Positions 814-27,433 of a stretch of 32,000 nt of DNA are shown here, piece by piece. This stretch comes from Candidatus Electrothrix sp. GW3-4 (GTDB taxonomy: Bacteria > Desulfobacterota > Desulfobulbia > Desulfobulbales > Desulfobulbaceae), in assembly GCF_037902255.1 (NCBI RefSeq), contig NZ_CP147990.1, positions 3,360,001 to 3,392,000 on the forward strand, written 5' to 3'. Positions within the stretch are counted from its first letter, which is position 1. The number at the start of each line of letters is the position of its first letter. Below the pieces are notes generated by a model that was not told where the DNA came from, ran no database searches, and was given only the letters and a program-made list of their open reading frames with translations. The position numbers were made by a program, and so were the translations under genes.

Positions 814-2202
814 TTACGCAGCAAGAGGCAGAGGAGGCACATCCAGACCCTGGCGCCGAGCCGTGATGACCTCAGCGAGATATTTCCACGGACAGGCGTT
901 GCGCTTCCTACACGTATCAATCACACTTGCAAGTATGGCGAACACACGACTGCCTTGATCATTACGGGTACCGTGGCTTAATTTGCGCGCAATAACCCAA
1001 TGACGTAGCGCTTGCTCCGCCTCATTATTGGTCAGGGGCCACGTCGGATTCGACAACACATGAAAAATAGTGTCCCAGTCGTTGAGAAATTCTCTGGCCA
1101 GCTCGCGTGTTTTTTTATGCGTTGAATCCCGATATTTCAGGCAGCATTCCTTGAATTCGGCCAGGAATTCTCTGTATATTGGCAAAAGGTCCGTGGGCGG
1201 CCCCTCACGAGCCTTGTAAATCGCATCCATCAGCTCGGTGAGCACGTCGTGGGCCTCGGTGCCGAATGTACGGGGATCATCACTCAAGCTCTGTTTCAAA
1301 CCTTTTGTCTTGCGCAGTAAATGCGCCCAGCAACGGAGCCTGTTGAGGAATTTACGATAGGCCTTGTAGCCGTCGGTCATCAGCAACCCCTTAAAGGTTT
1401 GCCCGAGCACATAATCAAGTACTTTCTGGCTGCGAAAGCCAATGATGTAAAAGGTGACTTTCAGCGAGGTAAAAACCCATAACCACTGTTTCTTGCCCCA
1501 CTCCTTCCAGGATGTCTCATCCACGAACAGGATCAGTGATTCACGCACCTCCTCAAGAAACTCATCGGTAAGGGGAGAAGCGGCGCGGCCAGCTTCATGG
1601 ATACATTGATTGATCGTACCGATGCCCAAATCCAATCGCAGCCAATCACGCAAAAACTCCCGGATGCGGCGGCGAGAGAGGCGCATGCGCTTGGAGAGGC
1701 ACACGATCAGAGCGACTAATGTCGGGCCGACCATGTGCCATTGGCTTATTTCAACCCCCCAGTCTTCGTTTTTTTCGAGACGATGGGGCATAAGCCGATT
1801 GACATGACCACAGCCGCCGCACGTCGTGTCTCCGTAGATATGCTTGGTGTTGATCACCTCTATTCCCGGGCCGGTGTCATCGCCTACCTCAATATCAACG
1901 ACATAATGACCTGTGCGAGCGGTGAAGTCGCATGTTTCGTCCAGCTCAAGGTTACAAGCCAAGCAGGTGTCTGCTTTGTGAATGATGGTGTCGTGTACGG
2001 GAAGTTTTTGCGTTCGACCATGCCCGGTGGCACCGGGTTGCTTGCCGGGTTTGTTGCCCTTGGGGCGATCATCAATATTTTTGGGGGAATCCTGCTGGTC
2101 GGACTTGTCCGCATCTTCATCATGCTCGACGGACTCCTCGTCAGAATCGTCGAGTTCTATGTGCGTGGCTTCAACTTGCTCTTCATCCGGTTCCTCCTCG
2201 TC
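814..2202 (-). pseudogene. IS66-family DDE transposase of copy A, C-terminal 462 codons
   Basis: IS66-type motifs are present: a Cys-rich zinc region (CLACN...CGGCGH), DETSW, MTDGYKAY, RCWAHLLRK and NNEAEQALRHWVIARK. The first 15 codons of the 477-aa track ORF (MSSSFLCGMRGVNGY) are read-through into copy B's terminal repeat, not transposase. Confidence 0.9.
2195..2202. repeat. Target-site duplication (left copy) of IS copy B: TCCTCGTC
   Basis: This 8-mer lies immediately outside the left terminal repeat and is identical to 3935..3942. Confidence 0.9.
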
Positions 2203-3934
2203 GTAACCGTTCACCCCCCTCATTCCACACAAAAAAGAACTGGACAAAAAAGAGGATCACGATAGTTTAACGGTCACAACGTTTTTTACGAGATCTATCC
2301 ACGTTCTGAGTTCGCATGCATCTATCCAGAGAAGAGTTGCTAAAAATAGATAAGCAGTTTATTGACTCCTTGCCCGGTAAGAGTGCAAAGGAGCTGTGCC
2401 TGCTCGCACTTGATGACCTCAAAGAACTTCACTGAACGGCTGGGTCAAAATTCCGAAAACAGCTCCATGCCTCCCAGCTCAAATTTCCCCTGGGCCCGGT
2501 TTGATGCCGACGCTCAAGCCGACGAGGAGGAACCGGATGAAGAGCAAGTCGAAGCCACGCACATAGAACTCGACGATTCTGACGAGGAGTCCGTCGAGCA
2601 TGATGAAGATGCGGACAAGTCCGACCAGCAGGATTCCCCCAAAAATATTGATGATCGCCCCAAGGGCAACAAACCCGGCAAGCAACCCGGCACCACCGGG
2701 CATGGTCGAACGCAAAAACTTCCCGTACACGACACCATCATTCACAAAGCAGACACCTGCTTGGCTTGTAACCTTGAGCTGGACGAAACATGCGACTTCA
2801 TCGCTCGCACCGGTCATTATGTCGTTGATATTGAGGTGGGCGATGCCACCGGCCCGGGAATAGAGGTGATCAACACCAAGCATATCTACGGAGACACGAC
2901 GTGCGGCGGCTGTGGTCATGTCAATCGGCTTATGCCCCATCGTCTCGAAAAAACGAAGACTGGGGGTTGAAATAAGCCAATGGCACATGGTCGGCCCAAA
3001 ATTGACCGCTCTGATCGTGTGCCTCTCCAAGCGCATGCGCCTTTCTCGCCGCCGCATCCGGGAATTTCTGCAAGATTGGCTGCGATTGGATTTGGGCATC
3101 GGCACGATCAATCAATGTATCCATGAAGCTGGCCGCGCCGTTTCTCCCCTTACCGAGGAGTTTCTTGAGGAGGTGCGTGAATCACTGATCTTGTTCGTGG
3201 ATGAGACATCCTGGAAGGAGTGGGGCAAGAAACAGTGGTTATGGGTCTTTACCTCGCTGAAAGTCACCTTTTACATCATTGGCTTTCGCAGCCGGAAAGT
3301 ACTTGATTATGTGCTGGGCCAAACCTTTAAGGGGTTGCTGATGACCGACGGCTACAAGGCCTATCGTACATTCCTCAACAGGCTCCGCTGCTGGGCGCAT
3401 TTACTGCGCAAGACAAAAGGCTTGAAACAGAGCTTGAGCGATGATCCCCGCACATTCGGCACCGAGGCCCACGAGGTGCTCACCGAGTTGATGGATGTAA
3501 TTTACAAGGCTCGCGAGGGACCACCCACGGACCTTTTGCCAGTATACAGAGAATTCCTGGGCGAATTTAAGGAATGCTGCATGAAATATCGGGATTCAAC
3601 GCATAAAAAACACGCGAGCTGGCCAGAGAATTTCTCAACGACTGGGACACTATTTTTCATGTGTTGTCGAATCCGACGTGGCCCCTGACCAATAATGAGG
3701 CGGAGCAAGCGCTACGTCATTGGGTTATTGCGCGCAAACTAAGCCACGGTACCCGTAATGATCAAGGCAGTCGTGTGTTCGCCATACTTGCAAGTGTGAT
3801 TGATACGTGTAGGAAGCGCAACGCCTGTCCGTGGAAATATCTCGCCGAGGTTATCACGGCTCGGCGTCAGGGGCTGGATGTACCTCCTCTGCCTCTTGCT
3901 GCGTAAAAAAAATGAGAGGGGTCTGAACGGTTAC
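2203..3934 (+). mobile_element. IS66-family element, copy B, nested inside copy A in opposite orientation
   Basis: 1732 bp. The left end is GTAACCGTTCACCCCCCTCATT (2203->) and the right end is ...AATGAGAGGGGTCTGAACGGTTAC (->3934). It is flanked by the identical 8-mer TCCTCGTC on both sides. Apart from scattered substitutions and four 1-bp indels it is colinear with copy A. Confidence 0.92.
2316..3906 (+). pseudogene. IS66-family transposase of copy B, broken by four single-base indels
   Basis: The reading frame moves 0->1->2->1. Relative to copy A there is an extra C near 2430-2432 that creates TGA at 2433; an A6 run (2948-2953) versus 7 in copy A; a G5 run (2962-2966) versus 6; and an A6 run (3605-3610) versus 7. 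Track ORFs 2362..2970, 2912..3688 and 3661..3906 are the pieces. Confidence 0.9.
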
Positions 3935-12600: not shown

Positions 12601-12842
12601 TTGATATTAACCCCTTGGGTAAGGCCAGTGAAGCGGGCCTGCAACAAGGCGATGTTATCCTGGCCGTGGATAACTCTCCGGTTGCCACCATTGGTGGTCT
12701 GAAAATAGCCCTTCTTGATAAAAAGCCTGGGGAAACGGTTCAGCTGAATATCGTCAGAAAGAATAAGGTAATGGATATCAAGGTGGAGTTATCAGATATG
12801 GAGAAGGCAGCTATGATGCCGCCAGGGCATCCGAAGAAGTAG
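9699..12842 (+). CDS. Exported multidomain protein: M1-family zinc peptidase + ChaN/Tiki-like (haem-binding uptake) module + C-terminal PDZ
   Basis: There is a hydrophobic N-terminal signal (MRTFLFPCFLSFLFMPLFLSSSLLLQNA). The zinc motif is GHEILHSWFGN...NWCEGLTT (HEXXH at nt 10572-10586 plus a downstream Glu). The ChaN/Tiki-type motif set is IIYLGETH, VIGMEMF, AQAIWDETMA and LAGTGH (about aa 690-935). The PDZ-like end is GLQQGDVILAVDNSPV...GETVQLNIVRKNKVMDIKV. Confidence 0.8.
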   Translation: MRTFLFPCFLSFLFMPLFLSSSLLLQNAEGAPTPVSPAPLHQDIHIAFALESALLQGNATILLPPERELNLSFVELEHIQIEITETWQEANDEEPVPQEIAPNSDKTLSLAPTAQERTLSLSWQVTAPPPGTSGNLISPQGITLTGPWHPTTGEKMLFSLHAELPPGFSGVTEAEKIKIRAEEEQQLFKATSPQPLYSINFAAGPYTVLSRHLNRLTLYSYFFAKDEELAPAYLDRAAEYIQRYEELIGPFPYTRYSIVENRLPTGYGMPGFTLLGQAVVRLPFIKDTSLGHEILHSWFGNAIDIGEGGNWCEGLTTLLADQSSAAEKGDGIASRKNQLLRYQAYAGQDNEKTVLDFQKAGDYRPMARKMRAIGYDKASMLFHSLRREIGDEPFFAALRQFYQDKKYSDANWSDLENTFAATSGRDLSLFFSQWLARPDIPSFTVEEVGMEQQGGSTVLSFHIVQHTEKPYSFRLPIIVKTRQETIRENIIIETADQEVMITIPSLPTEMIIDPEYDLMRILDKKERPPVWMSFVGAKQKTVVLPENEEALPSYLPLITELERWGCRIVKAKGLKNSELTQGSFLFLGSSSHNRTLFGTAQEQKTGFSLAVRKNPLNQKQVMVLISSASAKESQKALPKLRHYGKYSRLLFQQGKIKEKDITPADNGIRLPLLKPAIGIPVPQVQGFPAILNDISQSRIIYLGETHTDYGTHLLQLQILQALRAHLEQEGKGKDLVIGMEMFPRSSQPALDGYINGTIATEQNFLRLSDYYDTWGYDYRMYRDIINYAKAHRIPIIGLNLNKDIVSKVFQTGSTDELTPEQLSEAAPDRDLDLAGYRERLVQVHALHKEKNEKNFGGFLQAQAIWDETMAESIADFLQTHPDKKMLVLAGTGHVYKDSAIPPRVARRMKGRQSVLIANNGQVTGAKKGWQADYLMFTEEVELPPAGKIGVVLKEDEQTVDRPSRVEIVDINPLGKASEAGLQQGDVILAVDNSPVATIGGLKIALLDKKPGETVQLNIVRKNKVMDIKVELSDMEKAAMMPPGHPKK

Positions 12843-13125: not shown

Positions 13126-13759
13126 TTAACCGAGATTATTCCGACCTCCGACGAAGTGTTGCGCATTGTCGAAGAGATGTCCAAGGAGCAGCACAGAAGA
13201 CCTATTTTTGTTTTTGCCGCCGACGGTGCAATGGCACCGATCCAGACTGAGAAACAAGGGAAGCCGAACTGTTGAAAGGAGGCTAAAGGCATTCGGGATA
13301 TCTGATTGATTAGGAGCACATAATTCATCTATTGAGTTGGCATCAAATCGGCAACAAAGAACAGTTTTTGTCACAAGGTTCGCGTATGCTTTATCGGTGA
13401 CGGAGCAGGCTGGATATGGAACACGGTGAAAGAGGTGTACCCCAGTTGCCGGGAGGTCCTTGACTATTTTCATTATTCACAGGCATCTGTATGATTTTGC
13501 GAAAATTCATTACGGAAATGGCGCCCCATGCCGGGATTGGATTGAAAGCACCAAGGTACGCCTTTTTGCCAACAAGGTTTCTGCCGTGATCAGCGGTCTC
13601 AAAAGAATGCAATGCCGTACGGACGAAACGCAAGACAGCTGCAGAAAGCTGATTGATTACCTTACGGAGCATAGGGGTCGTGTCGATTATGGAAAACTCC
13701 GCCGAGGCGGGTATCCCTTAGGCAGCGGAGCAATTGAAAGTGCGAATAATATGAAATAG
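13126..13759 (+). pseudogene. DDE transposase remnant (ISKra4-like by motif pattern), truncated at both ends and decayed
   Basis: Readable pieces are ...PIFVFAADGAMAPIQTE.., FIGDGAGWIWNTVKEVYPSCREVLDYFH and ...YLTEHRGRVDYGKLRRGGYPLGSGAIESANN. They are separated by in-frame stops (the first at 13270-13272) and a +1 frameshift near 13480. There is no N-terminus, and the C-terminus ends where the AT-rich island begins. The family assignment is from memory of the GDGA.WIW / LD.FH / G.PIGSG.IES pattern. Confidence 0.65.
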
Positions 13760-14172
13760 GTCCTTCAAAACTATAAAACTAAATTTTTTGAAAAATATTT
13801 CAAGAAATTTTATTGCGGCAGAGTGAAATTCAAAAATCACGAGAATGTGACTTTTTATCAACCAGATATTTTTACAGTTTTTTATTGTTTTTTTTGCTGT
13901 TCACTATATTTTGTATAAAAAATACCCGGATGATATCCGCAGGGCGAACGCACGAGATATTATCTTTTTATAACAGATAGTTAAAATGCATGTATAGTTC
14001 CTTGAAAAAGTGTCATCCAAGCGTCGTTATTGCATAAAAACTATAGAGAGAAGCATATTTTCAATAAAACATGGAACGAGTTTACATATTCTATTAATTC
14101 TATGGCAGAAGTCATGCGTTTGCCCTGATGATATCCGGCACTACATAACTTTGCTTATTTATAACGGAAAAA

Positions 14173-15456
14173 ATGAAATTTACTTTATTAGACAGAGAAA
14201 AAATAGATCACTGGAAGGCATTGAAAAGATACCTTACCATTGCTCTCATCATTGAATTCATTATTCTCTGCATCTACACGCCATACGCTAGCTCCGCTTT
14301 AAATATTACGGAGAATATAGTCAGCCATTTGCATCACTGGATTCGACAAAAAGAGGATAAATTCATTGAGTGGACAATGAATGTGTATGAGGGCGCTGAG
14401 CTAGTTAATGAGAAGGGAAACTTATGCTGGATTAACATAGATAATGATACCTATAAAAATAAAGCATGGCACTCTAATGATAACTCTCGAGGAAAAATTA
14501 ATAAAAGTAATCTATTGAAACTTATTAAGTCTGTCCTTGAACTCCAGCCAGCTTTGGTAGTTGTCGATGTTAGTCTGAGAACAAAGGAAACTCTTGATTC
14601 TGATTTTCAGATTAACTACCTAGCTAAGTATAATAAAAAAGAAATTCCAATTGTTCTCACCGGAAATTTTTACAATTTCGATATAGAAAAAAACTTTAAT
14701 GAGATAAAAAGCATCTATTGGGCACTCCCTACCTTTTATCAAGAAGAGGATGGTGTAATACGTCGCTTTAAATTATGGAAATCAGGTTGTCCAGATACAG
14801 GAGACCGTATTATACCGTCCATACCACTACTTGCTAATGCCTTGGTAAAAACAGATGGATGTGAAGCGGCAAAAGAATGTGATTTTCATTATCCCACCTC
14901 AGACTGTTTCGCATTGAGCAGCAACATGCTTCATCGAATTATTTACAGATTTCCTTGGAAAAATGCAGATAACAGCCCATCACAGTTAAAGGTGATTTCC
15001 GCAGAAAACCTTAAAGGAAACAAAGAACAATACGGGGAGAAAATAAAAGGTAGCATTGTGATTATTGGAGGAAGTTACCAAAAAAGCAACGATTTTCACG
15101 AAACACCGCTGGGCGAAATGCCGGGAAGTCTCATTATTATCAACGCCATACACTCTCTGCAAATTGAAGGTGCGAACAAGCCATTTCCTCTGTGGGCTGT
15201 CCTCCTCATTTTGACAGCAATTGTTTTTTTGATAGCTGTTGTATTCTCTCAATTTGGTTCCACTAAGGGAAGTATTATATCTTCTGCCATCATTGGATCT
15301 TTCAGCTTGATTGTACTCTATATTTTTCCAGACACCCTTTTTATATTCAAAAACGGCGTCCCCTTCACCTTTGCAATTGCGCTGAGTATTGTCGGCATAC
15401 TCGGCTGTATCCCCATCGGCAATGTTGATCCTACCAACAAGGAAAAGCAATCATGA
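14173..15456 (+). CDS. Stand-alone CHASE2 domain membrane protein (no output domain)
   Basis: The topology is one N-terminal TM (YLTIALIIEFIILCIY), an extracytoplasmic region of about 300 aa, then three C-terminal TMs, ending 15 aa after the last helix. CHASE2-like motifs are CWINIDNDTY...PALVVVDVSL, EEDGVIRRFKLW and IVIIGGSYQKSNDFHETPLGEMPGSLIIINAIHSL. Confidence 0.75.
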   Translation: MKFTLLDREKIDHWKALKRYLTIALIIEFIILCIYTPYASSALNITENIVSHLHHWIRQKEDKFIEWTMNVYEGAELVNEKGNLCWINIDNDTYKNKAWHSNDNSRGKINKSNLLKLIKSVLELQPALVVVDVSLRTKETLDSDFQINYLAKYNKKEIPIVLTGNFYNFDIEKNFNEIKSIYWALPTFYQEEDGVIRRFKLWKSGCPDTGDRIIPSIPLLANALVKTDGCEAAKECDFHYPTSDCFALSSNMLHRIIYRFPWKNADNSPSQLKVISAENLKGNKEQYGEKIKGSIVIIGGSYQKSNDFHETPLGEMPGSLIIINAIHSLQIEGANKPFPLWAVLLILTAIVFLIAVVFSQFGSTKGSIISSAIIGSFSLIVLYIFPDTLFIFKNGVPFTFAIALSIVGILGCIPIGNVDPTNKEKQS

Positions 15457-16340
15457 AAATTTGTAATTATTTGAAATTAACCATTGCTGTAACAATCTCA
15501 TTGCAACCTATCACGGTTGCAGCACACGCTGCCTCCCAACACATCAAACAGCATGGGGTTCTCTTTGCGGGATCTCTTGAAAATGCCCATCCCTACCAAT
15601 ATGCATATAATGAGATACCACAGCCAAACCTGACAGGAACTTTAAAAAATAACAGCAACAGGGATAAACAGTCAGCAGAAGCAACAGAAAGGAAAAAAGA
15701 AGACAACGCGACAGTCAGGGCCAACCTGCTGGCATGGGTTACCCACATCCTGACCGAGCGTTATGACTATGAGAAAGAATGCGAAGAAGTACCACTCTTC
15801 ATACGAGGTGATAAAGAAAGCAAAAAACTAACCATTCCCCTACTGGAAAACCATCGAAAAATTATAGCTGGCACTCGAGTCTTTCACCTGAGATGGCAAG
15901 GAGGTAAATCGCCCTATCGAGTCCGTATAAGCCGTGAATATGAACGTCACCCCTTCATTGAGCGAGATTCGATTCAGGGGCATGACCTGCGTCTGGAAAA
16001 TTTCTCCCTTTCTCCCGGCAATTACACTCTAAAAATTAACGATACGGAACACAGTAAAATTCGAGTCGAATTTACTGTGGTTCCAGGCAAAACTGTGCCT
16101 CCAATGCCAGCCGAAATAAAGGGAAGCGATCTGTCCCATGCGGCAAAGGCCACGGTATATGCCACTTGGTTAGCTTCTCAGCAGGGAGGAACTTGGATAT
16201 TCGAGAGCTTTCAACGAGTGGCGGGCATGTCGGATAATTATCAACCCGCTCACCTGTTAAGCAATTTATTGGCTGACGGCCAAGACCTTGGGCCAATTCG
16301 TAAAGTAACAGTCCCTATTCAGAACAGCATAAAGTGGTGA
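15453..16340 (+). CDS. Secreted protein of unknown function (possibly distant DUF928-like)
   Basis: Its start overlaps the CHASE2 stop by 4 nt (ATGA) and is preceded by AAGGAAAAG. There is a signal peptide (MKICNYLKLTIAVTISLQPITVAAHA|AS). The C-terminal part (LSPGNYTLKINDTEHSKIRVEFTVV...AAKATVYATWLASQQGGTWIFESF) loosely recalls the DUF928 layout. That family call is tentative. Confidence 0.7.
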   Translation: MKICNYLKLTIAVTISLQPITVAAHAASQHIKQHGVLFAGSLENAHPYQYAYNEIPQPNLTGTLKNNSNRDKQSAEATERKKEDNATVRANLLAWVTHILTERYDYEKECEEVPLFIRGDKESKKLTIPLLENHRKIIAGTRVFHLRWQGGKSPYRVRISREYERHPFIERDSIQGHDLRLENFSLSPGNYTLKINDTEHSKIRVEFTVVPGKTVPPMPAEIKGSDLSHAAKATVYATWLASQQGGTWIFESFQRVAGMSDNYQPAHLLSNLLADGQDLGPIRKVTVPIQNSIKW

Positions 16341-16341
16341 C

Positions 16342-18723
16342 ATGGAGAAATTGCATCTTTTACGACTGGTATCGCGACCGCTGCGACTTCTCGGCTTTTT
16401 CCTGGGCCTAGCTATCCTACCGTCTTTATTTTATACAAGTTGGGATCAGGCATTGGCGAACGCCAACTCTCCGGCAAAGACCAACAGGGCGAATCAACTA
16501 CAAGCTCAGGGCCGAGAGGCATTCCTGCTCGGCGATTTTGCGCGAGCCGCTGTCCTTTGGCAGGACGCCACAGACTCCTACAGAAATGCCAACATGGTTA
16601 CTGAAGAGATCAACGCCTTAATTCTTCTTGCCGATGCGTATCAGGCCTTGGGACAACATCCACGCGCTCTAGAGGTACTTCATCAAGCCGAAAAATTTAC
16701 TGAGAATATTCAAGATAATAAGGAGTTATTAGCAATCATTAACGTCGGTCAGGGCTCAGTCTCTTTTTCTTTGGGAAATAAGGACAAGGCCAAAAAATAT
16801 TATGAACAGAGCATTGAATGGGCAAAAGCAACTGACAAAATGGCAATTGAAGCCGTATGTCGTAACAACCTCGGCAATATCCTGACCATCGAACAAGAAT
16901 ACGGCGAGGCTCTCGATTCCTATGATATAAGCATCAAATTGGCCAGATCTACAGGCAATAAAGTACTTACTGTCAATGCCATGATCAATGCCGCAAAAAC
17001 CGCTGTGCAATGGAACAGTCCCAACGACATAAAAAAGTACCTTAAACCCGCCTTACGCCAAACCAGAAAACTGGAGGATTGCTACGAAAAGGCATATGGT
17101 CTCGCAGCATTGGGAAGAATAGCTCATGAAATGAGTATAAAAGGTTCGGCCACCGCTTCCGACCGCTGGCGGTTATTTGCCTTCCACGCACTTACCGAGG
17201 CATCTGAAACCGCTAATCGTCTTGGTGATCTACGTGCAAAATCATACTCACTGGGGTATCTCGCCCGGCTGTATGAGGACGAAAAACGTTATGATGATGC
17301 CTTACGCCTAACTCACCAAGCTATCTTCATAGCCCAACAGGTAAATGCCCCGGAAATTCTCTATCTCTGGCAATGGCAAATCGGTCGTCTCCTAAAAACC
17401 AAGGGGAAAATAGAAGAAGCACTGGTCTCCTACCGGGATGCCCTAAAAAACCTGGAAACAGTACGCCAAGATCTCTCTGTCGCCTGCCGTGTCGCTAATA
17501 TAAACTTTCGCGAGCAGGACGGTCGTCTTTATATGGAATTAGCAGACTTGCTATTGAAACGTGCTGACTCGCAAACAGATTCAAAAAAAGTTCAAACTAC
17601 ATTGCGGGAAGTCCGGGATACCGTTGATCACCTCCGTGCGGCAGAATTGCGCGATTATTTCCAAGACCAATGCGTAACAGCATTGCAAAAAAAAGAGACC
17701 CAAATCGAAGGATTGCAAGTTATCACCAGGCAGACAGCCGCGATTTACCCGATTATCTTTCCCGAGCGCCTGGAATTACTCCTTGAGCTACCTGATGGAT
17801 CAATAAGCCAATTTGTGGTCAACGTTACCAGTAAGGAACTTAAAAGAGAGGCGGATAATTTCCGTAAAAAACTGGAAAAACAACCACCTGTTAATGGCTA
17901 TCAAGCACCGGCGCAAAAGCTCTACGAATGGCTCATCAAGCCGCTGCAAGATGAACTCACGGCATATAAAATAGACACCTTGGTCTTTGTTCCAGATGGC
18001 TCACTGAGGACCATCCCTATGGCCGCCCTCTATGACGGTTCCCATTTCCTGATTACTCAATACGCAGTGGCCATCATGCCGAGTAGGCTCTCTCTTGTCG
18101 CGGCAACCAGCGAGACACGCAAAAAATGGCAGCCATTGCTGGGGGGCCGGACAGATTTCGACGGTAACCGGAATTCCCTGCCGAAAGTCGCTGACGAACT
18201 TGCAGATATCAAAAAGATATATGGTGGCACCTTGCTATTAGATGAAGATTTCACCATCCAAAATATGGAGCAAAAACTCAAACATGATCCATACACGATT
18301 GTCCACCTGGCGACCCATGGAGAATTTCAAAGCGATATGAGCAAGTCATATCTCCTGACCTATGACGGCAAACTGACTATGGATGACCTGGAGCGATTGG
18401 TAGGCCTTGTCCGCTTTCGGGATATTCCAGTGGACCTGCTCACCTTGAGTGCCTGCCAAACCGCCGCAGGCGATGACCGAGCCGCTTTAGGATTAGCTGG
18501 TATAGCTGTTAAATCAGGGGCTCAGAGTGCTATAGCCACACTATGGTCTGTCAATGATGAGGCGACCTCAATTCTGATCCCAGAGTTCTACAAAAATTTA
18601 AAAAACTTGAAGATGTCCAAGGCTGAGGCTCTGCGTCAAGCACAACTCAAGATGCTGACTTATGAACAGTATAAGCATCCAGGGTACTGGTCTGCTTTTT
18701 TACTCACTGGAAGTTGGTTGTAA
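16342..18723 (+). CDS. Exported or membrane-anchored TPR-repeat CHAT-domain (caspase-like) protease
   Basis: It starts 1 nt after the upstream stop. The N-terminus has a hydrophobic segment LRLLGFFLGLAILPSLFY followed by ALA|NA. The middle holds many 34-aa TPR-like repeats (e.g. ALILLADAYQALGQHPRALEVLHQAEK). The C-terminal CHAT domain has the His in IVHLATHGEF (H659, nt 18316-18318), the Cys in LLTLSACQTAAG (C705, nt 18454-18456) and the typical ending HPGYWSAFLLTGSWL. Confidence 0.88.
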   Translation: MEKLHLLRLVSRPLRLLGFFLGLAILPSLFYTSWDQALANANSPAKTNRANQLQAQGREAFLLGDFARAAVLWQDATDSYRNANMVTEEINALILLADAYQALGQHPRALEVLHQAEKFTENIQDNKELLAIINVGQGSVSFSLGNKDKAKKYYEQSIEWAKATDKMAIEAVCRNNLGNILTIEQEYGEALDSYDISIKLARSTGNKVLTVNAMINAAKTAVQWNSPNDIKKYLKPALRQTRKLEDCYEKAYGLAALGRIAHEMSIKGSATASDRWRLFAFHALTEASETANRLGDLRAKSYSLGYLARLYEDEKRYDDALRLTHQAIFIAQQVNAPEILYLWQWQIGRLLKTKGKIEEALVSYRDALKNLETVRQDLSVACRVANINFREQDGRLYMELADLLLKRADSQTDSKKVQTTLREVRDTVDHLRAAELRDYFQDQCVTALQKKETQIEGLQVITRQTAAIYPIIFPERLELLLELPDGSISQFVVNVTSKELKREADNFRKKLEKQPPVNGYQAPAQKLYEWLIKPLQDELTAYKIDTLVFVPDGSLRTIPMAALYDGSHFLITQYAVAIMPSRLSLVAATSETRKKWQPLLGGRTDFDGNRNSLPKVADELADIKKIYGGTLLLDEDFTIQNMEQKLKHDPYTIVHLATHGEFQSDMSKSYLLTYDGKLTMDDLERLVGLVRFRDIPVDLLTLSACQTAAGDDRAALGLAGIAVKSGAQSAIATLWSVNDEATSILIPEFYKNLKNLKMSKAEALRQAQLKMLTYEQYKHPGYWSAFLLTGSWL

Positions 18724-18809
18724 ATTTTTGGTAACGGAAGGGGTTATTTTAATGCAAATAACATGTTCTCGATCTGAAGAGGCAAGCAAACTGTTAAAGG
18801 AGAGAGGCT

Positions 18810-21212
18810 ATGCTTAAAAAAAATAACCATGTGTGCTCTTTTGCTATCCTCGTAGCATCTTTACTAACGTTATCACTATATGCTCCATTGTGCTGGGCAG
18901 AAATCACCCTGGATGGAACCGTTGGTCCGGCAGGGACGCTTAGTGGACCCGATTTTTTGATTTGGGCAGAATTAGGCAAGATTTCAGGTAGCAATCTATT
19001 TCATAGCTTTAAAGATTTTAATATTAACCAAGGAGAAAGCGCGAATTTTTTCGGTCCAGACTCAATAGAGAATATTATCGGACGAGTCACGGGCGGTGAT
19101 ACATCTTCCATCAATGGTTCATTGAACAGCTGGATACCCGGAGCAAACTTATTTTTGATCAATCCGGCTGGAATAGTATTTGGCCCTGATGCTGAACTCA
19201 ATGTACAAGGCTCCTTTCATGCCAGCACAGCAGACTACATTCGCTTAGGTGAAAATGGTAGCTTTAACGCAACCCAGCCAGAGAACAGTGTATTGGCGGT
19301 TGATCCGCCCTCTGCTTTCGGTTTTCTGAGCGATAATTCTGCTCCGATTTCCGTACAGCATAGTACGCTCAAAAGCTCACAGGGAGAGACCTTATCCCTG
19401 GTGGGAGGTGATATTGATATTGTTGACAGTGAAATTTCTTCAAAGGACGGAGCAATCAACATCGTCACTACATCTTCACCCGGAGAAATCATCACCACGG
19501 AAAATTTTCAACCATCAACTACTGCGACAGATTCTTTCTCAAAACTTGGAACAATTCATATAGATGAGTCTATGTTGACCACAGGAGGTAGTATGGGAGG
19601 TAATATCAATATTTCTGGAAAAGATCTGTGTGTTGAGTCAACAGTAATTACTAATCATAGATATATAGAAGAATCAATCTCCAATTTAAAAATACCAGAC
19701 AAGTTAACCACTACTGCTAGCGAAAAAGCTGGCGACATAAATATAATGGCAGAAAATATAATACTTGATTATTGCTCAATAACATCATCTACTTATAACG
19801 ATAAAAACGCTGGCAACATCAACATAAAGGGAACGCAGGCGACGATCAATAACACTAGTATATTTTCAAATTCACTTGAAGGCGCAACGGGAGATGGTGG
19901 AAATATACAAATAGATATTGACGACCTTGTGATAGGAAAAGACACTTATATCACTTCCGTATCTGATAGCCCACAAGGTGGGAACGCTGGCGATATAGAA
20001 ATAACATCAAACATATTAGAACTATTACCAGGTGCAAATATTTCTACCGAAACAAGTGAACAATCTACAGGAGAAGCGGGAACTATTCGAATTCAGACTG
20101 ATAGCTTGCTCATGAAAGGCGGAAAAGATTTTGATTCCTGTACTAGGATAGCCAGCGACACTGGCAATTCAAAAGATGCAGGAAATATTGAAATAGTAGC
20201 TCAAGAAAAAATCTCATTGAGTGGAATGGCGGGCATCTTTAGCACCACACATAGTACTGGTAAAGGAGGAAACATAGAAATTCAAACTAACAATATGGAA
20301 TTGAAAAACGGAGCATTGATCTCCACCAGTAATGTAAGCACTTCAAGTCGTGGGCAGGGAGGAAACATATCCGTAATTGCAAACGACCTTCAAATATTAG
20401 ATGGAGCACAAATACAATCAGGTAACTTCGGCCAAGGAGATGGAGGAATGATAACTGTATCAAATAGTAACGATATACTCGTTTCCGGCTATGGCACAGA
20501 TGGTCATGCTAGTGGTATTCGTACCGACTCTCAAGGCGCAGGACAAGGAGGACAAGTCCATGTCCAATCTAATAATATCAGACTTGAAAATGGTGGAACT
20601 ATATCTGCAAAAAGTTCATCAACAGGTCAATCAGGTGCCATCTCTATTCAAGCTGACGACTCCATTGAAATCAAGGACGGCAGTAGCATCACCGTGCAAA
20701 CCAAGCAAGCCGATGCCGGTGATATTGAAGTGACAGCTGGCAATATGATTTACCTGTTAAATAAAGGTGAAATCAGCACCTCAGTTGCTGGTGGACAAGG
20801 AGATGGCGGCAACATCAATCTTGAATCGACCTTCGTTATCCTCAACAAGGAAAGCAAAATCATCGCCAATGCCCGTGAAGGAAATGGCGGCAACATCAAC
20901 GTACAAATTCAGCAAGATGGGGCTGTACTGAAGTCTGCTGAAAGCACGATTAGTGCTTCCTCAGAATTCGGCGTTGATGGCGCGGTAACAATCAATGCAC
21001 CGGATACGGATATTACTGGAGCTATCTCTACCCCGCCGGTAGAGTTTTTCGATGCATCTTCTATCTTGAGTGATCGCTGCGTAACCCGTGGCACAAGCGA
21101 CCTAAGCAGCTTCAATGTAGTCGGCCGGGGAGGCATGGCATTTTCACCGGACACCCACTTCCCTGCCTTTTATTCTCTTATCCCCGCAAAAAAGAAGAAA
21201 GAAAAGAAGTAA
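18810..21212 (+). CDS. TpsA-type exoprotein (two-partner secretion passenger) with N-terminal TPS/haemagglutination-activity domain and beta-helix repeats
   Basis: There is a strong Shine-Dalgarno (AAGGAGAG) and a signal peptide ending CWA|EI. The TPS domain reads NLFHSFKDFNINQGESANF...IIGRVTGGDTSSINGSL...ANLFLINPAGIVFG. It is followed by about 15 repeats of [AG]G[ND]I-x-[IV] (GGNIEIQTNN, GGNISVIAND, AGDIEVTAGN, and so on). Confidence 0.9.
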   Translation: MLKKNNHVCSFAILVASLLTLSLYAPLCWAEITLDGTVGPAGTLSGPDFLIWAELGKISGSNLFHSFKDFNINQGESANFFGPDSIENIIGRVTGGDTSSINGSLNSWIPGANLFLINPAGIVFGPDAELNVQGSFHASTADYIRLGENGSFNATQPENSVLAVDPPSAFGFLSDNSAPISVQHSTLKSSQGETLSLVGGDIDIVDSEISSKDGAINIVTTSSPGEIITTENFQPSTTATDSFSKLGTIHIDESMLTTGGSMGGNINISGKDLCVESTVITNHRYIEESISNLKIPDKLTTTASEKAGDINIMAENIILDYCSITSSTYNDKNAGNINIKGTQATINNTSIFSNSLEGATGDGGNIQIDIDDLVIGKDTYITSVSDSPQGGNAGDIEITSNILELLPGANISTETSEQSTGEAGTIRIQTDSLLMKGGKDFDSCTRIASDTGNSKDAGNIEIVAQEKISLSGMAGIFSTTHSTGKGGNIEIQTNNMELKNGALISTSNVSTSSRGQGGNISVIANDLQILDGAQIQSGNFGQGDGGMITVSNSNDILVSGYGTDGHASGIRTDSQGAGQGGQVHVQSNNIRLENGGTISAKSSSTGQSGAISIQADDSIEIKDGSSITVQTKQADAGDIEVTAGNMIYLLNKGEISTSVAGGQGDGGNINLESTFVILNKESKIIANAREGNGGNINVQIQQDGAVLKSAESTISASSEFGVDGAVTINAPDTDITGAISTPPVEFFDASSILSDRCVTRGTSDLSSFNVVGRGGMAFSPDTHFPAFYSLIPAKKKKEKK

Positions 21213-21257
21213 GCCCTTAAAATATAATATTTTATGAAATAATATTTACCCCTTAGC

Positions 21258-22994
21258 ATGAAACCTAAATCGATAATGGAACGTGGACTTAAGTATGTTG
21301 TGTGTGCCGGATTATTATTAATGACAAGCTTGAACGCTACCGAACTTATCGCTCAAAGTTCAGATCTGCTTCATGCCCAAAAAACAAGGCAAGAAAGACC
21401 AGCACTTCCAGACTATGCAAAGCCCAATCCGCCAGAGCTGGTACTCCCACCGGTTGCACCAACTCCCAAAACGCAAAAACGGCTTTCTGAAGAAATAAAG
21501 GTAAATGTCAAGGAATTCAGACTGACGGGCAATACCGTCTTTACCGATAACGAACTTGCAACAATCACAAAAAATTATAAAAACAACTATCTTACCTCAG
21601 AAGAAATACAAGAGGTACGGCGTAAGCTCACGCTCTTCTATGTAAACCAGGGATATATCAATTCTGGAGCCATTATCCCCGACCAAAAGATGGAAAACGG
21701 CATTCTGGATATCCAAATCATTGAAGGGAAGCTTACTGCTATAGAAGTCAGAGATAACAAGTGGCTTCGCACCACATATATCACAGAACGAATTTCTCCA
21801 AATAAAGACGCTGTCCTCAATATCAATGAGCTGCGGGAACGTCTCCAAATTCTCCAGCAAGATCCACTTGTCCTCCAATTTCACGCCCAACTGAAACCGG
21901 GAATCGAACCGGGTGAAAGCATCCTTGTACTTAAAATCAGGGAGGACAATCCGTGGCAGCTTAATATGACCTTTGCCAATGACCGTTCGCCAAGCATTGG
22001 CGCTGAAAGACTTTTTGGATATGTCGCGCATCGCAGTATTAGCAAACATGGGGATACTCTGGCATTCAAATCCGGCTTTACCAATGGCGCCGATGACTTT
22101 GGCTTATCCTATAGTTATCCCCTCACTGCCAATGACACCCTATTATCCTTGAAATTCAACAAAAATGAATCCGTTGTCATTGAAGAGCCCTTTGATTCAA
22201 TTGACATAGATAGCGAAATGGAAAGCTACGGCATTTCAATAAGTCATCCGTTTTACAGGACACCGCAACGACTCTTGTCAACGAGGCTAGCCCTTGAACG
22301 ACGTCATAGCGAGACTTTTCTCTTAGGAGAGCCGTTCTCTTTCTCACCGGGAGCAGTGGATGGTAAGAGTGATGTAACGGTTGTCCGTTTCACCCAGGAA
22401 TGGTTGAGTCGCAGTCTCAACCAGGTGATTTCTGTATATTCTACATTCAACCTCGGAATTGATGCGTTTGGGGGGACAGATGGACCAGAAGAGACCGATG
22501 GTCAATATTTGTCTTGGCTGGGGCAGTTTCAATGGGCAAGACGCTTCACGAAACGGGGGGATCAAATCATTTTCCGCACCGATGTGCAGCTGGCCAATGA
22601 TTCGCTCTTATCTATAGAAAAAATGGCTATCGGAGGTGCCTCAACTGTGCGGGGGTACCGAGAGAATCAACTCATCCGGGATAATGCCGTGGTAGCATCC
22701 CTGGAGTTGCGCCTTCCCTTATTTCGCCTACCAATTCCCAAGATAAGCCGAAGAGCTGAAGATGGCATGTTGCATCTTGTACCGTTCGGAGATTTTGGAC
22801 AGGGCTGGAACACTCATACTCCAACACCGAATCCAGACTCTATTTCCAGCCTGGGAGTTGGACTTAGATGGGACCCTAGCTCTAAAATTCATGCAGAAAT
22901 ATATTGGGGGTATCCGTTAAGAGACTTAGATACCCCCTATGAGGATTTACAAGACGACGGTATTCACTTTAAATTGAGCTATTTCCTCTTTTAG
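21258..22994 (+). CDS. TpsB / ShlB-FhaC family outer-membrane transporter (POTRA + 16-strand barrel type)
   Basis: It has a signal peptide, a Pro-rich linker and a POTRA-like segment (VKEFRLTGNTVFTDNELATITKNY...IQIIEGKLTAIEV). The body has alternating beta-strand character, with GGASTVRGY and a C-terminal aromatic end ...GIHFKLSYFLF. The exact start (21258 versus 21279) is uncertain because neither has a clear Shine-Dalgarno. Confidence 0.88.
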   Translation: MKPKSIMERGLKYVVCAGLLLMTSLNATELIAQSSDLLHAQKTRQERPALPDYAKPNPPELVLPPVAPTPKTQKRLSEEIKVNVKEFRLTGNTVFTDNELATITKNYKNNYLTSEEIQEVRRKLTLFYVNQGYINSGAIIPDQKMENGILDIQIIEGKLTAIEVRDNKWLRTTYITERISPNKDAVLNINELRERLQILQQDPLVLQFHAQLKPGIEPGESILVLKIREDNPWQLNMTFANDRSPSIGAERLFGYVAHRSISKHGDTLAFKSGFTNGADDFGLSYSYPLTANDTLLSLKFNKNESVVIEEPFDSIDIDSEMESYGISISHPFYRTPQRLLSTRLALERRHSETFLLGEPFSFSPGAVDGKSDVTVVRFTQEWLSRSLNQVISVYSTFNLGIDAFGGTDGPEETDGQYLSWLGQFQWARRFTKRGDQIIFRTDVQLANDSLLSIEKMAIGGASTVRGYRENQLIRDNAVVASLELRLPLFRLPIPKISRRAEDGMLHLVPFGDFGQGWNTHTPTPNPDSISSLGVGLRWDPSSKIHAEIYWGYPLRDLDTPYEDLQDDGIHFKLSYFLF

Positions 22995-23255: not shown

Positions 23256-25676
23256 TCACGCCAGCGCCTGCCTTACCTTCTTGGCCAACCCTTCAAGGCG
23301 AAACGGTTTTTTAACAATGAGATCAACCCCAAGCTGCCTCATCTTTTCTATCTCGTCATGTTTTGAAAAACCAGTGACAATAATTGTTTTCTGTCCGGGA
23401 TGAATCATAATAATTTGCTCGTAGGTCTCCCGGCCATTGAGGCCGGGGCCCATGACCATATCCAACAGGAGAAGGTTTACCTTATTTTTTTGCATGTAGC
23501 GAACAGCCTCCTCACCGGAGGAAACCGCATGGACGGTGTATCCTAAAAGATTCAACATTTTACCTGCAATCTCTCGCTGCTCCGTCTCGTCATCAACCAG
23601 CAACACCGTCTCACCATTTCCTTTCAGGCCATCCAACGTCACCTCATCACTCTCTTGGATCAGTTCATCAGTGATTGCCGGGAAGAAGAGCTCGAACAGG
23701 GTCCCTTGAGGGCCGGATTCCACAATAATACCACCGTTATGATCCTGTACACTGTTCCAGACGACTGCCAACCCCAGCCCGGTCCCGCTTCTACCCATAA
23801 CTTTTTTACTGTAAAAAGGCTCAAAAATATGTTGCAGGTCGTTTTTATCAATGCCAGAACCTGTGTCTCTGATAGCAACAACAGCATACCTCCCGGCTTG
23901 AAGGGTCATACCGACTGCTGTCATCGGCACATCGACCAACTGATTGCGGGTGACGAGAGTAACAGTACCGTCACCATTGATGGCCTCGGCAGCGTTACCA
24001 ACCAGATTCATGATGCATTTTTTCATATGAACGGGAGAACAACTTATATTCATCAGGTTCGGTTCCAGGCTAACATTAAAAGAGACGTCCTCATGCCGTT
24101 TTTGGAGTTCTTTTCCTTCTGGCGAAACGAGATATTCACGAACGAGGGTATTGAGATTGGCAGGCTGCCGTTCTGCCAGCACACCACGCGCAACAGTCAG
24201 CAGATCAGCCACAACCTCACCGGCCATCTCTCCTGATCTCCTTATACTTTCAAGTGGTTGCCGAAGTTGACTATCATCAGGGAGTTCCATAAGCAACAGA
24301 TCCGGGTAACCTACTATGGCGGCGAGGATATTATTGAGGTCATGGGCCACCCCTCCGGCCATCAGCCCGATAGCCTCCATCTTTTCGGCCTTGCGTAATT
24401 TCGCCTCAGCCTCTTTCTGTGCAGTTATATCACGGGCAACATGCACGGATCCGACAAAAGAATTATTTTCATCATATAATGGTGTAACCATAATATGGAG
24501 ATAGCATTGTAACCGCTCCTCAAAAACTTCCGCAGAATAGGGCTTATGATCCTTGAGGAGCTTCGTATGAGGACAGAAGGTCGGCGGTGACTCAGTACCA
24601 TGCATGAGGCGGTAACATTTATTATTAATGATCTGCTCCATCGGTATATTCAACCTTTCGGACATAGCCTTATTGGCGTGGATAATATCATGCCGGTCAT
24701 TGAGAATAGTAATCAGGTCAGGGACTGAATCAAAGGTCCGTTCCCACTCTTTTTGCGCTCGCAGGGTTTCCAGCTGGGCCTTTTTACGTTCTTCTATCTC
24801 CTGTTGCAGCTCCAGGGTCCGGTCTTCAACGCGTTGCTCCATTTCTTCGTATGCCTGCTCCAGTTCATGTTCTACCTGTTTACGCTGTTCAATATTCCTG
24901 AGGATTTTTTTATTACCGCAATAGACACCGCCGAGTCCGATAAATAGCAGCACTGCATGCCATACAACAAGTATCAACCGGTTACGATCAGCGATTTCCT
25001 TAAACGGCAATAGCGGCACAGAAACAGATATTCCACCGCGTACGTCACCGACCTGATATCCTTGGGATGCATGGCATTGCATACATTCACCATTCACCAT
25101 GAGTGGTTTCATGAGGCGCAGGTAAGGTACGCCATTCATGACCTCAACAGAACTGACTTCTGTTACCCCTTGAACGAATTGTTTAAGGGCCTCAGCTTCC
25201 CACGGATCAGCCCGGTTTTCTGGACGAATCGGGTTAAGACTGGTGATATGTTCTTGTATGCCACTCTCCTGCATCTGCAATTCTAAAACCTGCCGCGTCA
25301 TGTAAGCGGGATTAACCAAAGTCAATTTTATTCCAGACGCTGTCATAATATCACGTCGTTCCGAAGTCAGGTGAGGATTACTCGGCGTCTTATCTGTCAC
25401 CGGTACATAGACTCCGCCATGCATGGCATTCCATCGACGATAAATAATATCTTTCTTATAAGAAGATCGAGCATGGGTTTGTGCCGTTTCCAGGGTGCTC
25501 TGCTGAATTCTATGCATATTCCATGTCATGGAAGAGGTTACCGTTGCCAGCCACAAAAAAGCCAGCACCCAGCCGTACCGCTGTTGCAACCTACATTCCT
25601 GCTGTTCAAAACGGTGAATTTGATCTCTTGGACCGGGAGCCATTTTTTTCGCTCGGTTAAAATTCAAGAAAGACAT
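23256..25676 (-). CDS. Hybrid sensor histidine kinase: TM - DUF3365 (Tll0287-like, CxxCH haem c) - TM - coiled coil - PAS - HisKA/HATPase - receiver
   Basis: The periplasmic segment is HITSLNPIRPENRADPWEAEAL...YLRLMKPLMVNGECMQCHAS...RGGISVSVPL (CMQCH at nt 25071-25085). The H-box is GGVAHDLNNILAAIVGY. The ATPase part has RDTGSGI and GTGLGLAVV. The C-terminal receiver reads VLLVDDE...LLLLDMVMGPGLNG...IIVTGF...VKKPF. Confidence 0.9.
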   Translation of the reverse strand: MSFLNFNRAKKMAPGPRDQIHRFEQQECRLQQRYGWVLAFLWLATVTSSMTWNMHRIQQSTLETAQTHARSSYKKDIIYRRWNAMHGGVYVPVTDKTPSNPHLTSERRDIMTASGIKLTLVNPAYMTRQVLELQMQESGIQEHITSLNPIRPENRADPWEAEALKQFVQGVTEVSSVEVMNGVPYLRLMKPLMVNGECMQCHASQGYQVGDVRGGISVSVPLLPFKEIADRNRLILVVWHAVLLFIGLGGVYCGNKKILRNIEQRKQVEHELEQAYEEMEQRVEDRTLELQQEIEERKKAQLETLRAQKEWERTFDSVPDLITILNDRHDIIHANKAMSERLNIPMEQIINNKCYRLMHGTESPPTFCPHTKLLKDHKPYSAEVFEERLQCYLHIMVTPLYDENNSFVGSVHVARDITAQKEAEAKLRKAEKMEAIGLMAGGVAHDLNNILAAIVGYPDLLLMELPDDSQLRQPLESIRRSGEMAGEVVADLLTVARGVLAERQPANLNTLVREYLVSPEGKELQKRHEDVSFNVSLEPNLMNISCSPVHMKKCIMNLVGNAAEAINGDGTVTLVTRNQLVDVPMTAVGMTLQAGRYAVVAIRDTGSGIDKNDLQHIFEPFYSKKVMGRSGTGLGLAVVWNSVQDHNGGIIVESGPQGTLFELFFPAITDELIQESDEVTLDGLKGNGETVLLVDDETEQREIAGKMLNLLGYTVHAVSSGEEAVRYMQKNKVNLLLLDMVMGPGLNGRETYEQIIMIHPGQKTIIVTGFSKHDEIEKMRQLGVDLIVKKPFRLEGLAKKVRQALA

Positions 25677-26819: not shown

Positions 26820-26896
<77 letters not shown>

Positions 26897-26908
26897 TCAC
26901 TGGAAAGC

Positions 26909-26937
26909 AATATATACTAATCTCGACATCCTGTCAA
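26909..26937 (-). promoter_or_regulatory. Sigma-70-type promoter for tRNA-fMet
   Basis: On the minus strand: TTGACA (26937-26932), a 17-nt spacer, then TATATT (26914-26909), with 12 nt to the mature tRNA 5' end. The sequence immediately upstream is AT-rich and UP-element-like (AAATAAAAAAGAATGATAG). Confidence 0.75.
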
Positions 26938-26964
26938 GAGATTATTTCACACTATCATTCTTTT

Positions 26965-27432: not shown

Positions 27433-27433
27433 A

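Follow-up and report, generated by a model that had tools for sequence, protein, structure and literature searches.

A two-partner secretion cassette of a cable bacterium encodes a predicted exported caspase-like protease, an immunoglobulin-like partner and a CHASE2 protein

Two-partner secretion (TPS, type Vb) is taught as a two-component system, made of an exoprotein (TpsA) and its transporter (TpsB). Here, we analyse a cassette of five co-directional open reading frames (ORFs) on the forward strand of Candidatus Electrothrix sp. GW3-4, a cable bacterium, located at 14173-22994 of a 32,000-nucleotide stretch of contig NZ_CP147990.1, which is called the window below. In addition to TpsA and TpsB, the cassette encodes a CHASE2 inner-membrane protein, a predicted secreted protein (ORF2) and a predicted exported TPR-CHAT cysteine protease, see Table 1. 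What appears to be new is that type Vb secretion is combined with a dedicated caspase-like protease, an immunoglobulin (Ig)-like partner and a CHASE2 receptor, and the window contains a derived, cyclase-less member of this system. Neither CHAT nor caspase partners come up in the 2017 TPS review, and no description of a module of TPS, CHAT, CHASE2 and DUF928 was found in the full-text literature searched, outside which most subscription papers lie. The initial annotation of the window, made from the sequence alone, knew of no functional study, and none was found in the same literature. The only paper found with DUF928 makes a passing remark on a WD40-CHASE2-DUF928 cluster in Nostoc punctiforme (PMC5587647), and a metacaspase survey lists one CHASE2-metacaspase fusion (PMC2853523).

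The cassette resembles described type Vb systems in its TpsA, with a TPS domain and a beta-helix, and in its TpsB, with a POTRA domain, a 16-strand-type barrel, the VRGY motif and a terminal Phe. Further, a C-terminal segment of TpsA could stay in the periplasm, where a protease could cut it; such processing has a precedent in the FhaB prodomain and DegP (PMC8263021, PMC4542190). However, in place of a housekeeping serine protease, the candidate here is a clan-CD TPR-CHAT protein that is dedicated and encoded within the cassette, two extra dedicated partners (the Ig-like protein and CHASE2) are present, and the TpsA tail of the cassettes has about 35-90 residues compared with about 1,200 in the prodomain. 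The C-terminal anchoring of HMW1 offers an analogy for this tail.

CHAT proteases were initially described as best known from the cytoplasm, a statement that needs one correction, as a characterised periplasmic TPR-CHAT protein exists, DdvA of Myxococcus xanthus (PMC11506125). DdvA has a His-Cys dyad, as the window protease does, and is among its best structural matches. It is an anti-sigma factor proposed to act in signal-dependent proteolysis at the inner membrane, possibly by self-cleavage (PMC11506125). DdvA differs in being a single polypeptide that includes a zinc anti-sigma domain in the cytoplasm and a transmembrane (TM) helix, paired with a sigma factor of the extracytoplasmic function (ECF) type, and it is without the three-helix motif that the window CHAT protein has at 497-541. 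The latter is instead predicted to be a free exported protein with TPS, CHASE2 and ORF2 as partners; only a signal peptide precedes its TPRs, and no sigma or anti-sigma gene is adjacent.

The TPR and CHAT architecture is also shared with Csx29 of the type III-E Craspase and with separase, both specific, regulated proteases and top Foldseek matches. In the separase-securin pair, the pseudosubstrate securin may be a model for ORF2 and DUF928, by analogy. These proteases differ from the window protein in being cytoplasmic or nuclear, and their sequence similarity to it is undetectable by phmmer; a phmmer search of the PDB sequences with the CHAT domain alone gave no match. Csx29 requires Cas7-11 and CRISPR RNA (crRNA), whereas the cassette has no CRISPR genes: Cas7-11/gRAMP, a CRISPR array and Csx30/31 are absent from the window and from 80 related loci, and the CHAT protein has a signal peptide.

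In the LapD-LapG-LapA adhesin-release system of Pseudomonas, a periplasmic cysteine protease under the control of a receptor in the inner membrane cuts the periplasm-side anchor of a giant surface adhesin, which is retained in an outer-membrane pore. The likeness is limited to this logic of receptor, protease and anchor, i.e. it is an analogy of mechanism and not a membership. LapG is transglutaminase-like, LapD is a cyclic di-GMP receptor with a degenerate GGDEF-EAL part, LapA uses type I secretion, and no families are shared.

To describe the neighbourhood of the protease we used the best 80 loci out of at least 586 confirmed CHAT relatives, with one genome scanned per GTDB species. All ORFs of each locus were searched with the window proteins, unassigned neighbours were then clustered, and partners were counted within 10 kb of the CHAT gene. 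The two largest clusters of unassigned neighbours are DUF928 proteins (Pfam E 1e-30 to 1e-38) and CHASE2-cyclase proteins. TpsB is found in 60 of the 80 loci (61 counting L049), TpsA and DUF928 in 59 each, and CHASE2, nearly always fused to a cyclase, in 35; 21 loci contain all five families. When the count is restricted to the 37 loci that extend 8 kb or more to either side of the CHAT gene, TpsA is present in 34, TpsB in 31, DUF928 in 33 and CHASE2 in 20, i.e. CHASE2 is the most dispensable partner. By a rough estimate, no more than about 2% of 20-kb stretches taken at random should contain a TpsB gene. The commonest order is TpsA-TpsB-CHAT-(CHASE2-cyclase)-DUF928. The apparent in-frame TpsB-CHAT fusion of L049 (3260-3290) was rejected as an artefact of NN bases in the scaffold, and its CHAT part keeps its own signal peptide.

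The loci span at least eight phylum-level groups, with hosts among Nitrospira, Desulfobacterota, Gamma- and Betaproteobacteria (Competibacter, relatives of Beggiatoa and Thioploca), Verrucomicrobiota, Scalindua, Myxococcota, Zixibacteria and Entotheonella. The CHAT, TPS, TpsB and CHASE2 families thus co-occur within 10 kb across phyla, the outcome of a census that the initial annotation had named as a check on its proposal. Pairwise distances between CHAT proteins correlate with those of their neighbours in Mantel tests, most strongly for DUF928 (r 0.90), followed by TpsB (0.83), CHASE2 (0.74) and TpsA (0.68), all with p<=0.0005. Export is predicted for the partners as well. Among 107 full-length gene-called CHAT orthologues, 101 have an N-terminal hydrophobic region, compared with 3 in an internal control stretch, and in DUF928 a hydrophobic region lies upstream of the Y.PP..G.P..RvGGG.RG motif in 42 of 44 proteins versus none of 44 in the downstream control.

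Full-length CHAT orthologues are also found on cyanobacterial plasmids, in Nostoc punctiforme PCC 73102 and Anabaena PCC 7120. On pNPUN03 of Nostoc punctiforme, CHASE2, filamentous-hemagglutinin-N-terminal, CHAT and DUF928 annotations lie within 17 kb, which bears out the initial statement that these families are found with DUF928 in cyanobacteria. Both strains are genetically tractable, and the function of the plasmid clusters is therefore directly testable there. In Nostoc sp. PCC 7120 (L090, pCC7120alpha 341462-363675), the CHAT orthologue is near a 688-residue TpsA-like gene with the tail motif described below; this neighbourhood differs, and also holds a peptidase-domain ABC transporter, an HlyD adaptor, a peptidyl-prolyl isomerase and a PPC-domain protein. 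Downstream of DUF928 in the Nitrospira loci (L010, L014, L019, L023, L024 and others), receiver-PAS proteins (29 loci), ABC substrate-binding proteins (13 loci) and TonB-dependent receptors (10 loci) recur; these may be further partners or lineage-specific synteny.

The pairs of a large TPS subfamily are accordingly accompanied, consistently, by genes for a DUF928-type protein and for a dedicated caspase-like protease with a predicted export signal, and in many cases by a CHASE2 cyclase gene too. If the link is functional, it would add a layer of regulated proteolysis to type Vb secretion, give a role to the uncharacterised DUF928 and ORF2-like families, and put forward a first concrete candidate for the input of CHASE2. 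Periplasmic TPR-CHAT proteases would then extend beyond the single case of DdvA.

In the window, the order is CHASE2, ORF2, TPR-CHAT, TpsA, TpsB. The CHASE2 and ORF2 genes overlap by 4 nucleotides in an ATGA stop/start (15453-15456), and one nucleotide (16341) separates ORF2 from CHAT in TGA-C-ATG, both read directly from the sequence; the gaps before tpsA and tpsB are 86 and 45 nucleotides. On re-reading, these five co-directional genes and their junctions are identical to those initially annotated, and several other claims made then were borne out. Profile hidden Markov model (HMM) searches matched CHASE2, TPR, CHAT, TPS, POTRA_2 and ShlB. A signal peptide or TM segment had been seen on every product; hydropathy segments were found in four, and ORF2 is signal-like with homologues that pass the threshold. 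No cytoplasmic enzyme, ATPase, toxin or immunity gene, said to be missing from the block, was detected by Pfam, NCBIfam or PADLOC. The PADLOC models gave a generic TPR match (9.4e-11) and a weak BovA match (3.7e-05) on the CHAT protein and none on the other four. The description of the cassette as entirely extracytoplasmic holds for the sub-type in the window, but not for the common form, where CHASE2 carries a cyclase domain.

The closest relatives have 51-63% CHAT identity and share the window order, with a CHASE2 protein without output and an ORF2-like gene. This order recurs in independent contigs: L001, a Logan contig starting with an IS66 fragment, which keeps the 4-nucleotide overlap and the 1-nucleotide gap; L083/L084, a JGI contig with an rve integrase and phage integrases at the flanks; and L089, an ENA contig where the cassette adjoins a HigB toxin gene. 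The ORF2 profile picks up the small genes of these cassettes at about 1e-70; the DUF928 HMM does not match them. A decayed copy of the same type, with the TPS genes absent, is seen in Desulfobacula toluolica Tol2 (L082, FO203503.1 3141897-3164302); two DDE transposases split the CHASE2 and ORF2-like genes from CHAT, and an IS66 element and a DruA-like gene follow.

The common neighbourhood (Nitrospira, Desulfobacterota, Competibacter, Verrucomicrobiota, Scalindua and the Nostoc plasmids) shares with the window an orthologous CHAT protein (38-44% identity over at least 93% of the length), TpsB, and a TpsA with the identical C-terminal motif, and all partners are predicted to be exported. It differs in that the gene order is rearranged in the window, the CHASE2 protein of the window is cyclase-less and diverged, and ORF2 takes the place of DUF928. 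The window cassette is a rearranged, derived and cyclase-less variant of a widespread module.

The protease consists of a signal peptide or anchor (14-32), a TPR superhelix (about 54-460) and a CHAT domain (521-791), the latter matching PF12770 with E 2.7e-66 over profile positions 1-289 of 289, together with TPR families in Pfam. The family is conserved over the full length of about 770-800 residues (42-63% identity, at least 89% coverage). The predicted catalytic residues had been called an intact His659/Cys705 dyad, and both were confirmed by codon and are invariant in an alignment of 25 homologues. The same alignment shows hardly any change in residues 301-349 of the TPR region, in either cassette type. 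The AlphaFold 2 (AF2) model, with a predicted local distance difference test (pLDDT) score of 77, has a TPR superhelix followed by CHAT, and the helices at 497-541 are consecutive. It appears to have the TPR-CHAT fold of the separase/Craspase type, with Csx29 (8eey_B, E 8.5e-13), DdvA and separase (9hma) as best Foldseek matches in the PDB; 7xsq_B is matched with a TMq of 0.49.

Judged by sequence, TpsA and TpsB have what is expected of a two-partner secretion pair, i.e. a TPS-domain exoprotein and an adjacent POTRA/ShlB transporter. TpsA has an N-terminal hydrophobic segment (8-26), a TPS domain (Pfam E 2.1e-33 at residues 59-265; TIGR01901 E 2.8e-21), an NPAG motif at 118 and G(G/D)NI-type beta-helix coils. 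It is shorter than the common-form TpsA, and Pfam found no toxin domain in it, nor is one present in the TpsAs of the other cassettes. TpsB has an N-terminal hydrophobic segment or signal peptide (14-32), matches to POTRA_2 (6.4e-18), ShlB (5.5e-26) and Omp85 (4.4e-12) in Pfam, the L6 VRGY motif at 464 and a C-terminal Phe. Across 51 full-length cassette TpsAs from several phyla, the C-terminal tail follows the consensus L..rCaAr..gG..SSFvvaGRdGlP.eP. This motif is common to both cassette types and to the Nostoc plasmid TpsAs adjoining CHAT genes. Many canonical TpsAs have a second Cys at the extreme C-terminus, which the window type does not have. We propose that the tail may be a periplasmic anchor or an element recognised by the protease.

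ORF2 occupies the position of DUF928 in related clusters. Its N-terminus is signal-like (MKICNYLKLTIAVTISLQPITVAAHA/AS) and falls under a crude 19-residue hydropathy threshold that its homologues pass. No Pfam family, even at E<=10, and no NCBIfam model matched. Still, the label of an orphan does not stand: when a profile of three sequences was run exhaustively with HMMER, 753 representative clusters matched at E<=1e-3, of which 410 reached <=1e-10, mostly with about 300 residues. A word-indexed homologue search under-reports this family, with 2 and 10 matches. The AF2 model (pLDDT 81.8, above 90 over most of residues 130-280) starts with a signal helix and a disordered stretch (30-87), continues with a conserved helix (88-112) and a seven-strand Ig-like sandwich (135-210), and includes a helical subdomain (220-274); structural matches in the PDB are generic Ig-like only.

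Six fusions with other domains are among the top 150 matches of the ORF2 profile. They are CHASE2-ORF2like (P0185 and P0191), TIR-DUF7779-CHASE2-ORF2like (P0179, 1373 residues), ORF2like-TPR-CHAT (P0208), ORF2like-Peptidase_C14, i.e. a caspase (P0267), and ORF2like-WD40 (P0184). Proteins with the ORF2-like domain at the N-terminus begin with signal peptides, and the CHASE2-ORF2like fusions have a fourth hydrophobic segment that resembles a retained signal peptide; for these reasons the ORF2-like domain is predicted to be periplasmic in all fusions. In P0179, a cytoplasmic TIR and DUF7779 (STAND-associated) part is followed by a TM segment, CHASE2, further TM segments and a periplasmic ORF2-like domain, and the predicted arrangement resembles a receptor that spans the membrane and carries a death-type effector.

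On sequence, ORF2 is not a DUF928 protein (PF06051). Pfam is empty at E<=10 for ORF2, P0001 and P0002, a DUF928 HMM built from 60 cluster members misses ORF2 and its sisters, and hhalign gives P 0.011-0.016 with a probability of 3-4%. By eye the two consensus patterns are alike (RG ... L.W ... pG.Y ... G.W.[DE]A), and the two may be remotely homologous. ORF2 and DUF928 share the slot by CHAT and CHASE2, the same partners, predicted secretion and a size of about 250-300 residues. What these shared traits show is positional equivalence rather than homology.

The window CHASE2 protein matches PF05226 with E 1.1e-17 over profile positions 14-252 of 257. It has the topology of CHASE2 receptors, with an N-terminal TM segment (16-34), a predicted periplasmic domain (57-354) and three C-terminal TM segments between 340 and 415. 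An output domain was initially reported as missing, and indeed CHASE2 is the sole domain found by Pfam and NCBIfam; no cyclase, kinase or GGDEF domain is present, and the protein stops about 12 residues beyond the last TM segment. CHASE2 proteins without output are also found in L001, L083, L089 and L082 at 34-56% identity, each ending 10-15 residues past the last TM segment. The output-less form is therefore a conserved state and not a truncation or decay. Among 41 CHASE2-type proteins scanned, 35 carry an adenylate/guanylate cyclase domain (Guanylate_cyc), and the window type is among the six without. The common-form proteins have about 650 residues and score about 210 bits to the Pfam CHASE2 model, compared with 65 for the strongly diverged window protein. 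The absence of a cytoplasmic component is a derived trait of the window sub-type.

The initial annotation had read the five genes as a module of the cell envelope. This is supported by the synteny across phyla, the tight translational coupling kept in sister cassettes, the fusions, the Mantel distances and the export signals, and we consider it very probable that the five genes work together there as one module. That they lie side by side by chance in a mobile island is refuted by the synteny census and has next to no likelihood: the low GC content and the transposase remnants nearby would fit it, but the partnership is seen around the 80 orthologues, fusion proteins exist and the overlapping stop/start codons are conserved.

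How the module works can be proposed only tentatively, and we regard it as possible that CHAT cuts the TpsA tail and thereby sets surface retention versus release. TpsB would export the beta-helical TpsA to the cell surface, while the C-terminal tail (C-x2-R...SSF-x3-GRGG-x-P) would remain on the periplasmic side as an anchor. The periplasmic TPR-CHAT protein would bind the tail through its conserved TPR groove and then cut it, and this cut would decide if the filament is retained or released. TPR 301-349 and the tail are conserved in both types while DUF928 is swapped for ORF2, which points to a groove that binds a shared partner, e.g. the tail. ORF2, or DUF928 elsewhere, would be a binding partner of the protease, serving as its adaptor or inhibiting it in the manner of securin, as suggested by the fusions to CHASE2 and to proteases and by the tightest co-variation. 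The CHASE2 protein would tether or regulate the pair of protease and ORF2 at the inner membrane, and in the common form it would additionally signal to the cytoplasm through cyclic AMP (cAMP) or cyclic GMP (cGMP). In the cable-bacterium variant the cyclase output is lost, and control would therefore be purely extracytoplasmic. The structural neighbours Csx29, DdvA and separase, all regulated and substrate-specific proteases, speak for tail cleavage.

A number of observations weigh against it. Contact and cleavage within the module are what we infer, the localisation calls are hydropathy heuristics, and the Mantel correlations ignore the shared species phylogeny. Scans of the cassette for promoters and terminators give no more matches than shuffled sequences. 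Three complete loci (L006, L026, L068) have CHAT, a CHASE2 cyclase and DUF928 with TpsA and TpsB absent within 10 kb, so the protease pair can exist without an adjacent TpsA. The highest co-variation of CHAT is with DUF928 and not with TpsA, so that DUF928 or ORF2 could itself be the substrate. Finally, CHAT specificity is unpredictable: the cleavage site follows Met or Leu in Craspases and Arg in separase (PMC11506125). It is therefore a speculation that Arg-Gly motifs (RvGGGxRG in DUF928, GRGG in TpsA) are cleavage sites.

The main alternative, which we find somewhat unlikely, is signalling from outside to inside, with TpsA as an antenna, a change in its state leading to cleavage of DUF928/ORF2 or of the CHASE2 ectodomain by CHAT, and a relay inward through CHASE2. 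It would account for the class III cyclase fused to most common-form CHASE2 proteins, for P0179, where CHASE2 and an ORF2-like domain are joined to a cytoplasmic TIR-STAND module, for the tight co-variation of DUF928 with CHAT, and for the three trios without TPS genes; DdvA, too, is a periplasmic TPR-CHAT protein in trans-membrane signalling (PMC11506125). However, in 24 of the 80 loci, mostly from metagenome-assembled genomes of Nitrospira, CHASE2 is missing altogether although CHAT is accompanied by DUF928 and the TPS genes, and the window-type CHASE2 is without output in four diverged lineages, i.e. as a conserved feature. As the cyclase is absent in the window, the relay there would need another membrane partner or be vestigial. 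The hybrid histidine kinase beside the window cassette was considered as the missing output and ruled out, as it is not kept beside the sister cassettes.

A related and unlikely possibility is a trans-envelope sensor. Here, the TpsA antenna would be read by a separase/securin-like pair of CHAT and DUF928/ORF2, which would respond to the mechanical or ligand-bound state of the beta-helix and cleave the tail, and CHASE2 would receive the proteolytic event and pass it on as cAMP or cGMP. The cable-bacterium version would be an output-less derivative working within the filament periplasm. If true, this would be the first known input for CHASE2.

A conflict or programmed-death module is quite unlikely. 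In such a module, an envelope caspase-like executioner would be triggered by damage, phage or non-kin contact, and TpsA would sense the contact or serve as a filament for delivery. At 43.7%, the GC content of the cassette is below the 51-53% of the flanks (50.8% and 52.8%), with transposase remnants nearby, sister copies adjoin integrases, insertion sequence (IS) elements and the HigB gene, and TIR, caspase and WD40 domains occur in fusions with the ORF2-like domain. Many hosts are filamentous or aggregating (Electrothrix, relatives of Beggiatoa and Thioploca, Entotheonella, Scalindua, Thiomargarita, Nostoc), but this enrichment is an impression. On the other hand, PADLOC gives only the weak TPR and BovA matches, neither a toxin domain in TpsA nor an immunity gene after it is present, and the CHAT orthologues are predicted to be exported, which places the protease outside the cytoplasm and away from the usual death substrates.

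Caspase-like peptidases have been proposed as releasing peptidases of polymorphic toxins, with TPS as one export route (PMC3482391). A contact-dependent inhibition (CDI) or polymorphic-toxin system with CHAT in this role is very improbable and contradicted by the anatomy: TpsA ends, as in 51 relatives, in a conserved 35-residue tail and not in a variable toxin domain, neither an immunity gene nor a small downstream ORF family is present, and the peptidase is a separate exported protein rather than an internal domain of the toxin. Among these readings, we prefer tail cleavage within an envelope module.

Table 1. Features of the cassette and its surroundings, in positions of the window.
Feature	Position	Strand	Remarks
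CHASE2 inner-membrane protein, 427 aa	14173..15456	+	Pfam CHASE2 and hydropathy
ORF2, predicted secreted protein, 295 aa	15453..16340	+	DUF928 slot of related clusters
Predicted exported TPR-CHAT cysteine protease, 793 aa	16342..18723	+	Pfam and AF2 model
Predicted catalytic His659 codon	18316..18318	+	HLATHG motif, invariant in 25 sequences
Predicted catalytic Cys705 codon	18454..18456	+	LSACQT motif, invariant in 25 sequences
TpsA exoprotein, 800 aa	18810..21212	+	signal peptide, TPS domain, beta-helix
Conserved C-terminal tail motif of the TpsA subfamily	21045..21149	+	aa 746-780, FFDASSILSDRCVTRGTSDLSSFNVVGRGGMAFSP
TpsB transporter, 578 aa	21258..22994	+	POTRA_2 83-157, ShlB/Omp85 barrel 219-578
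AT-rich intergenic region, presumed cassette promoter region	13760..14172	+	30.5% GC
ISKra4-like transposase C-terminus remnant	13460..13759	+	possible left island edge, weak evidence
IS66-family transposase piece	814..2247	-	upstream of cassette
IS66-family transposase piece	2912..3688	+	upstream of cassette
Hybrid histidine kinase	23256..25676	-	Tll0287-like periplasmic domain, PAS, HisKA/HATPase, receiver; converges on cassette end

The GC content below that of the flanks and the transposase remnants nearby suggest that the cassette is a horizontally acquired island. The ISKra4-like fragment has weak tblastn matches to plasmid genes for ISKra4 family transposases (E 4e-4), with 45.7% identity to a Desulfohalobium plasmid; a Pfam search gave no match, and an assignment to IS66 was ruled out as similarity is absent. 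In the AT-rich region, promoter-like hexamers are not above shuffled sequences, and no Rfam family for a riboswitch or leader was matched upstream of the cassette.

Elsewhere in the window, three ORFs of 202-487 residues, at 7566-9029 (+), 26860-27468 (+) and 28728-29654 (-), are without a Pfam match at E<=0.1. In the entire window, Rfam gives a single match at the gathering score, a tRNA gene at 26823-26896 (-). A protein of 1047 residues encoded just upstream of the island (9699-12842, +) carries a Peptidase_M1 domain together with a ChaN/Tiki-type haem-binding domain (E 1.3e-58) and, at the C-terminus, a PDZ domain, an architecture that seems unusual.

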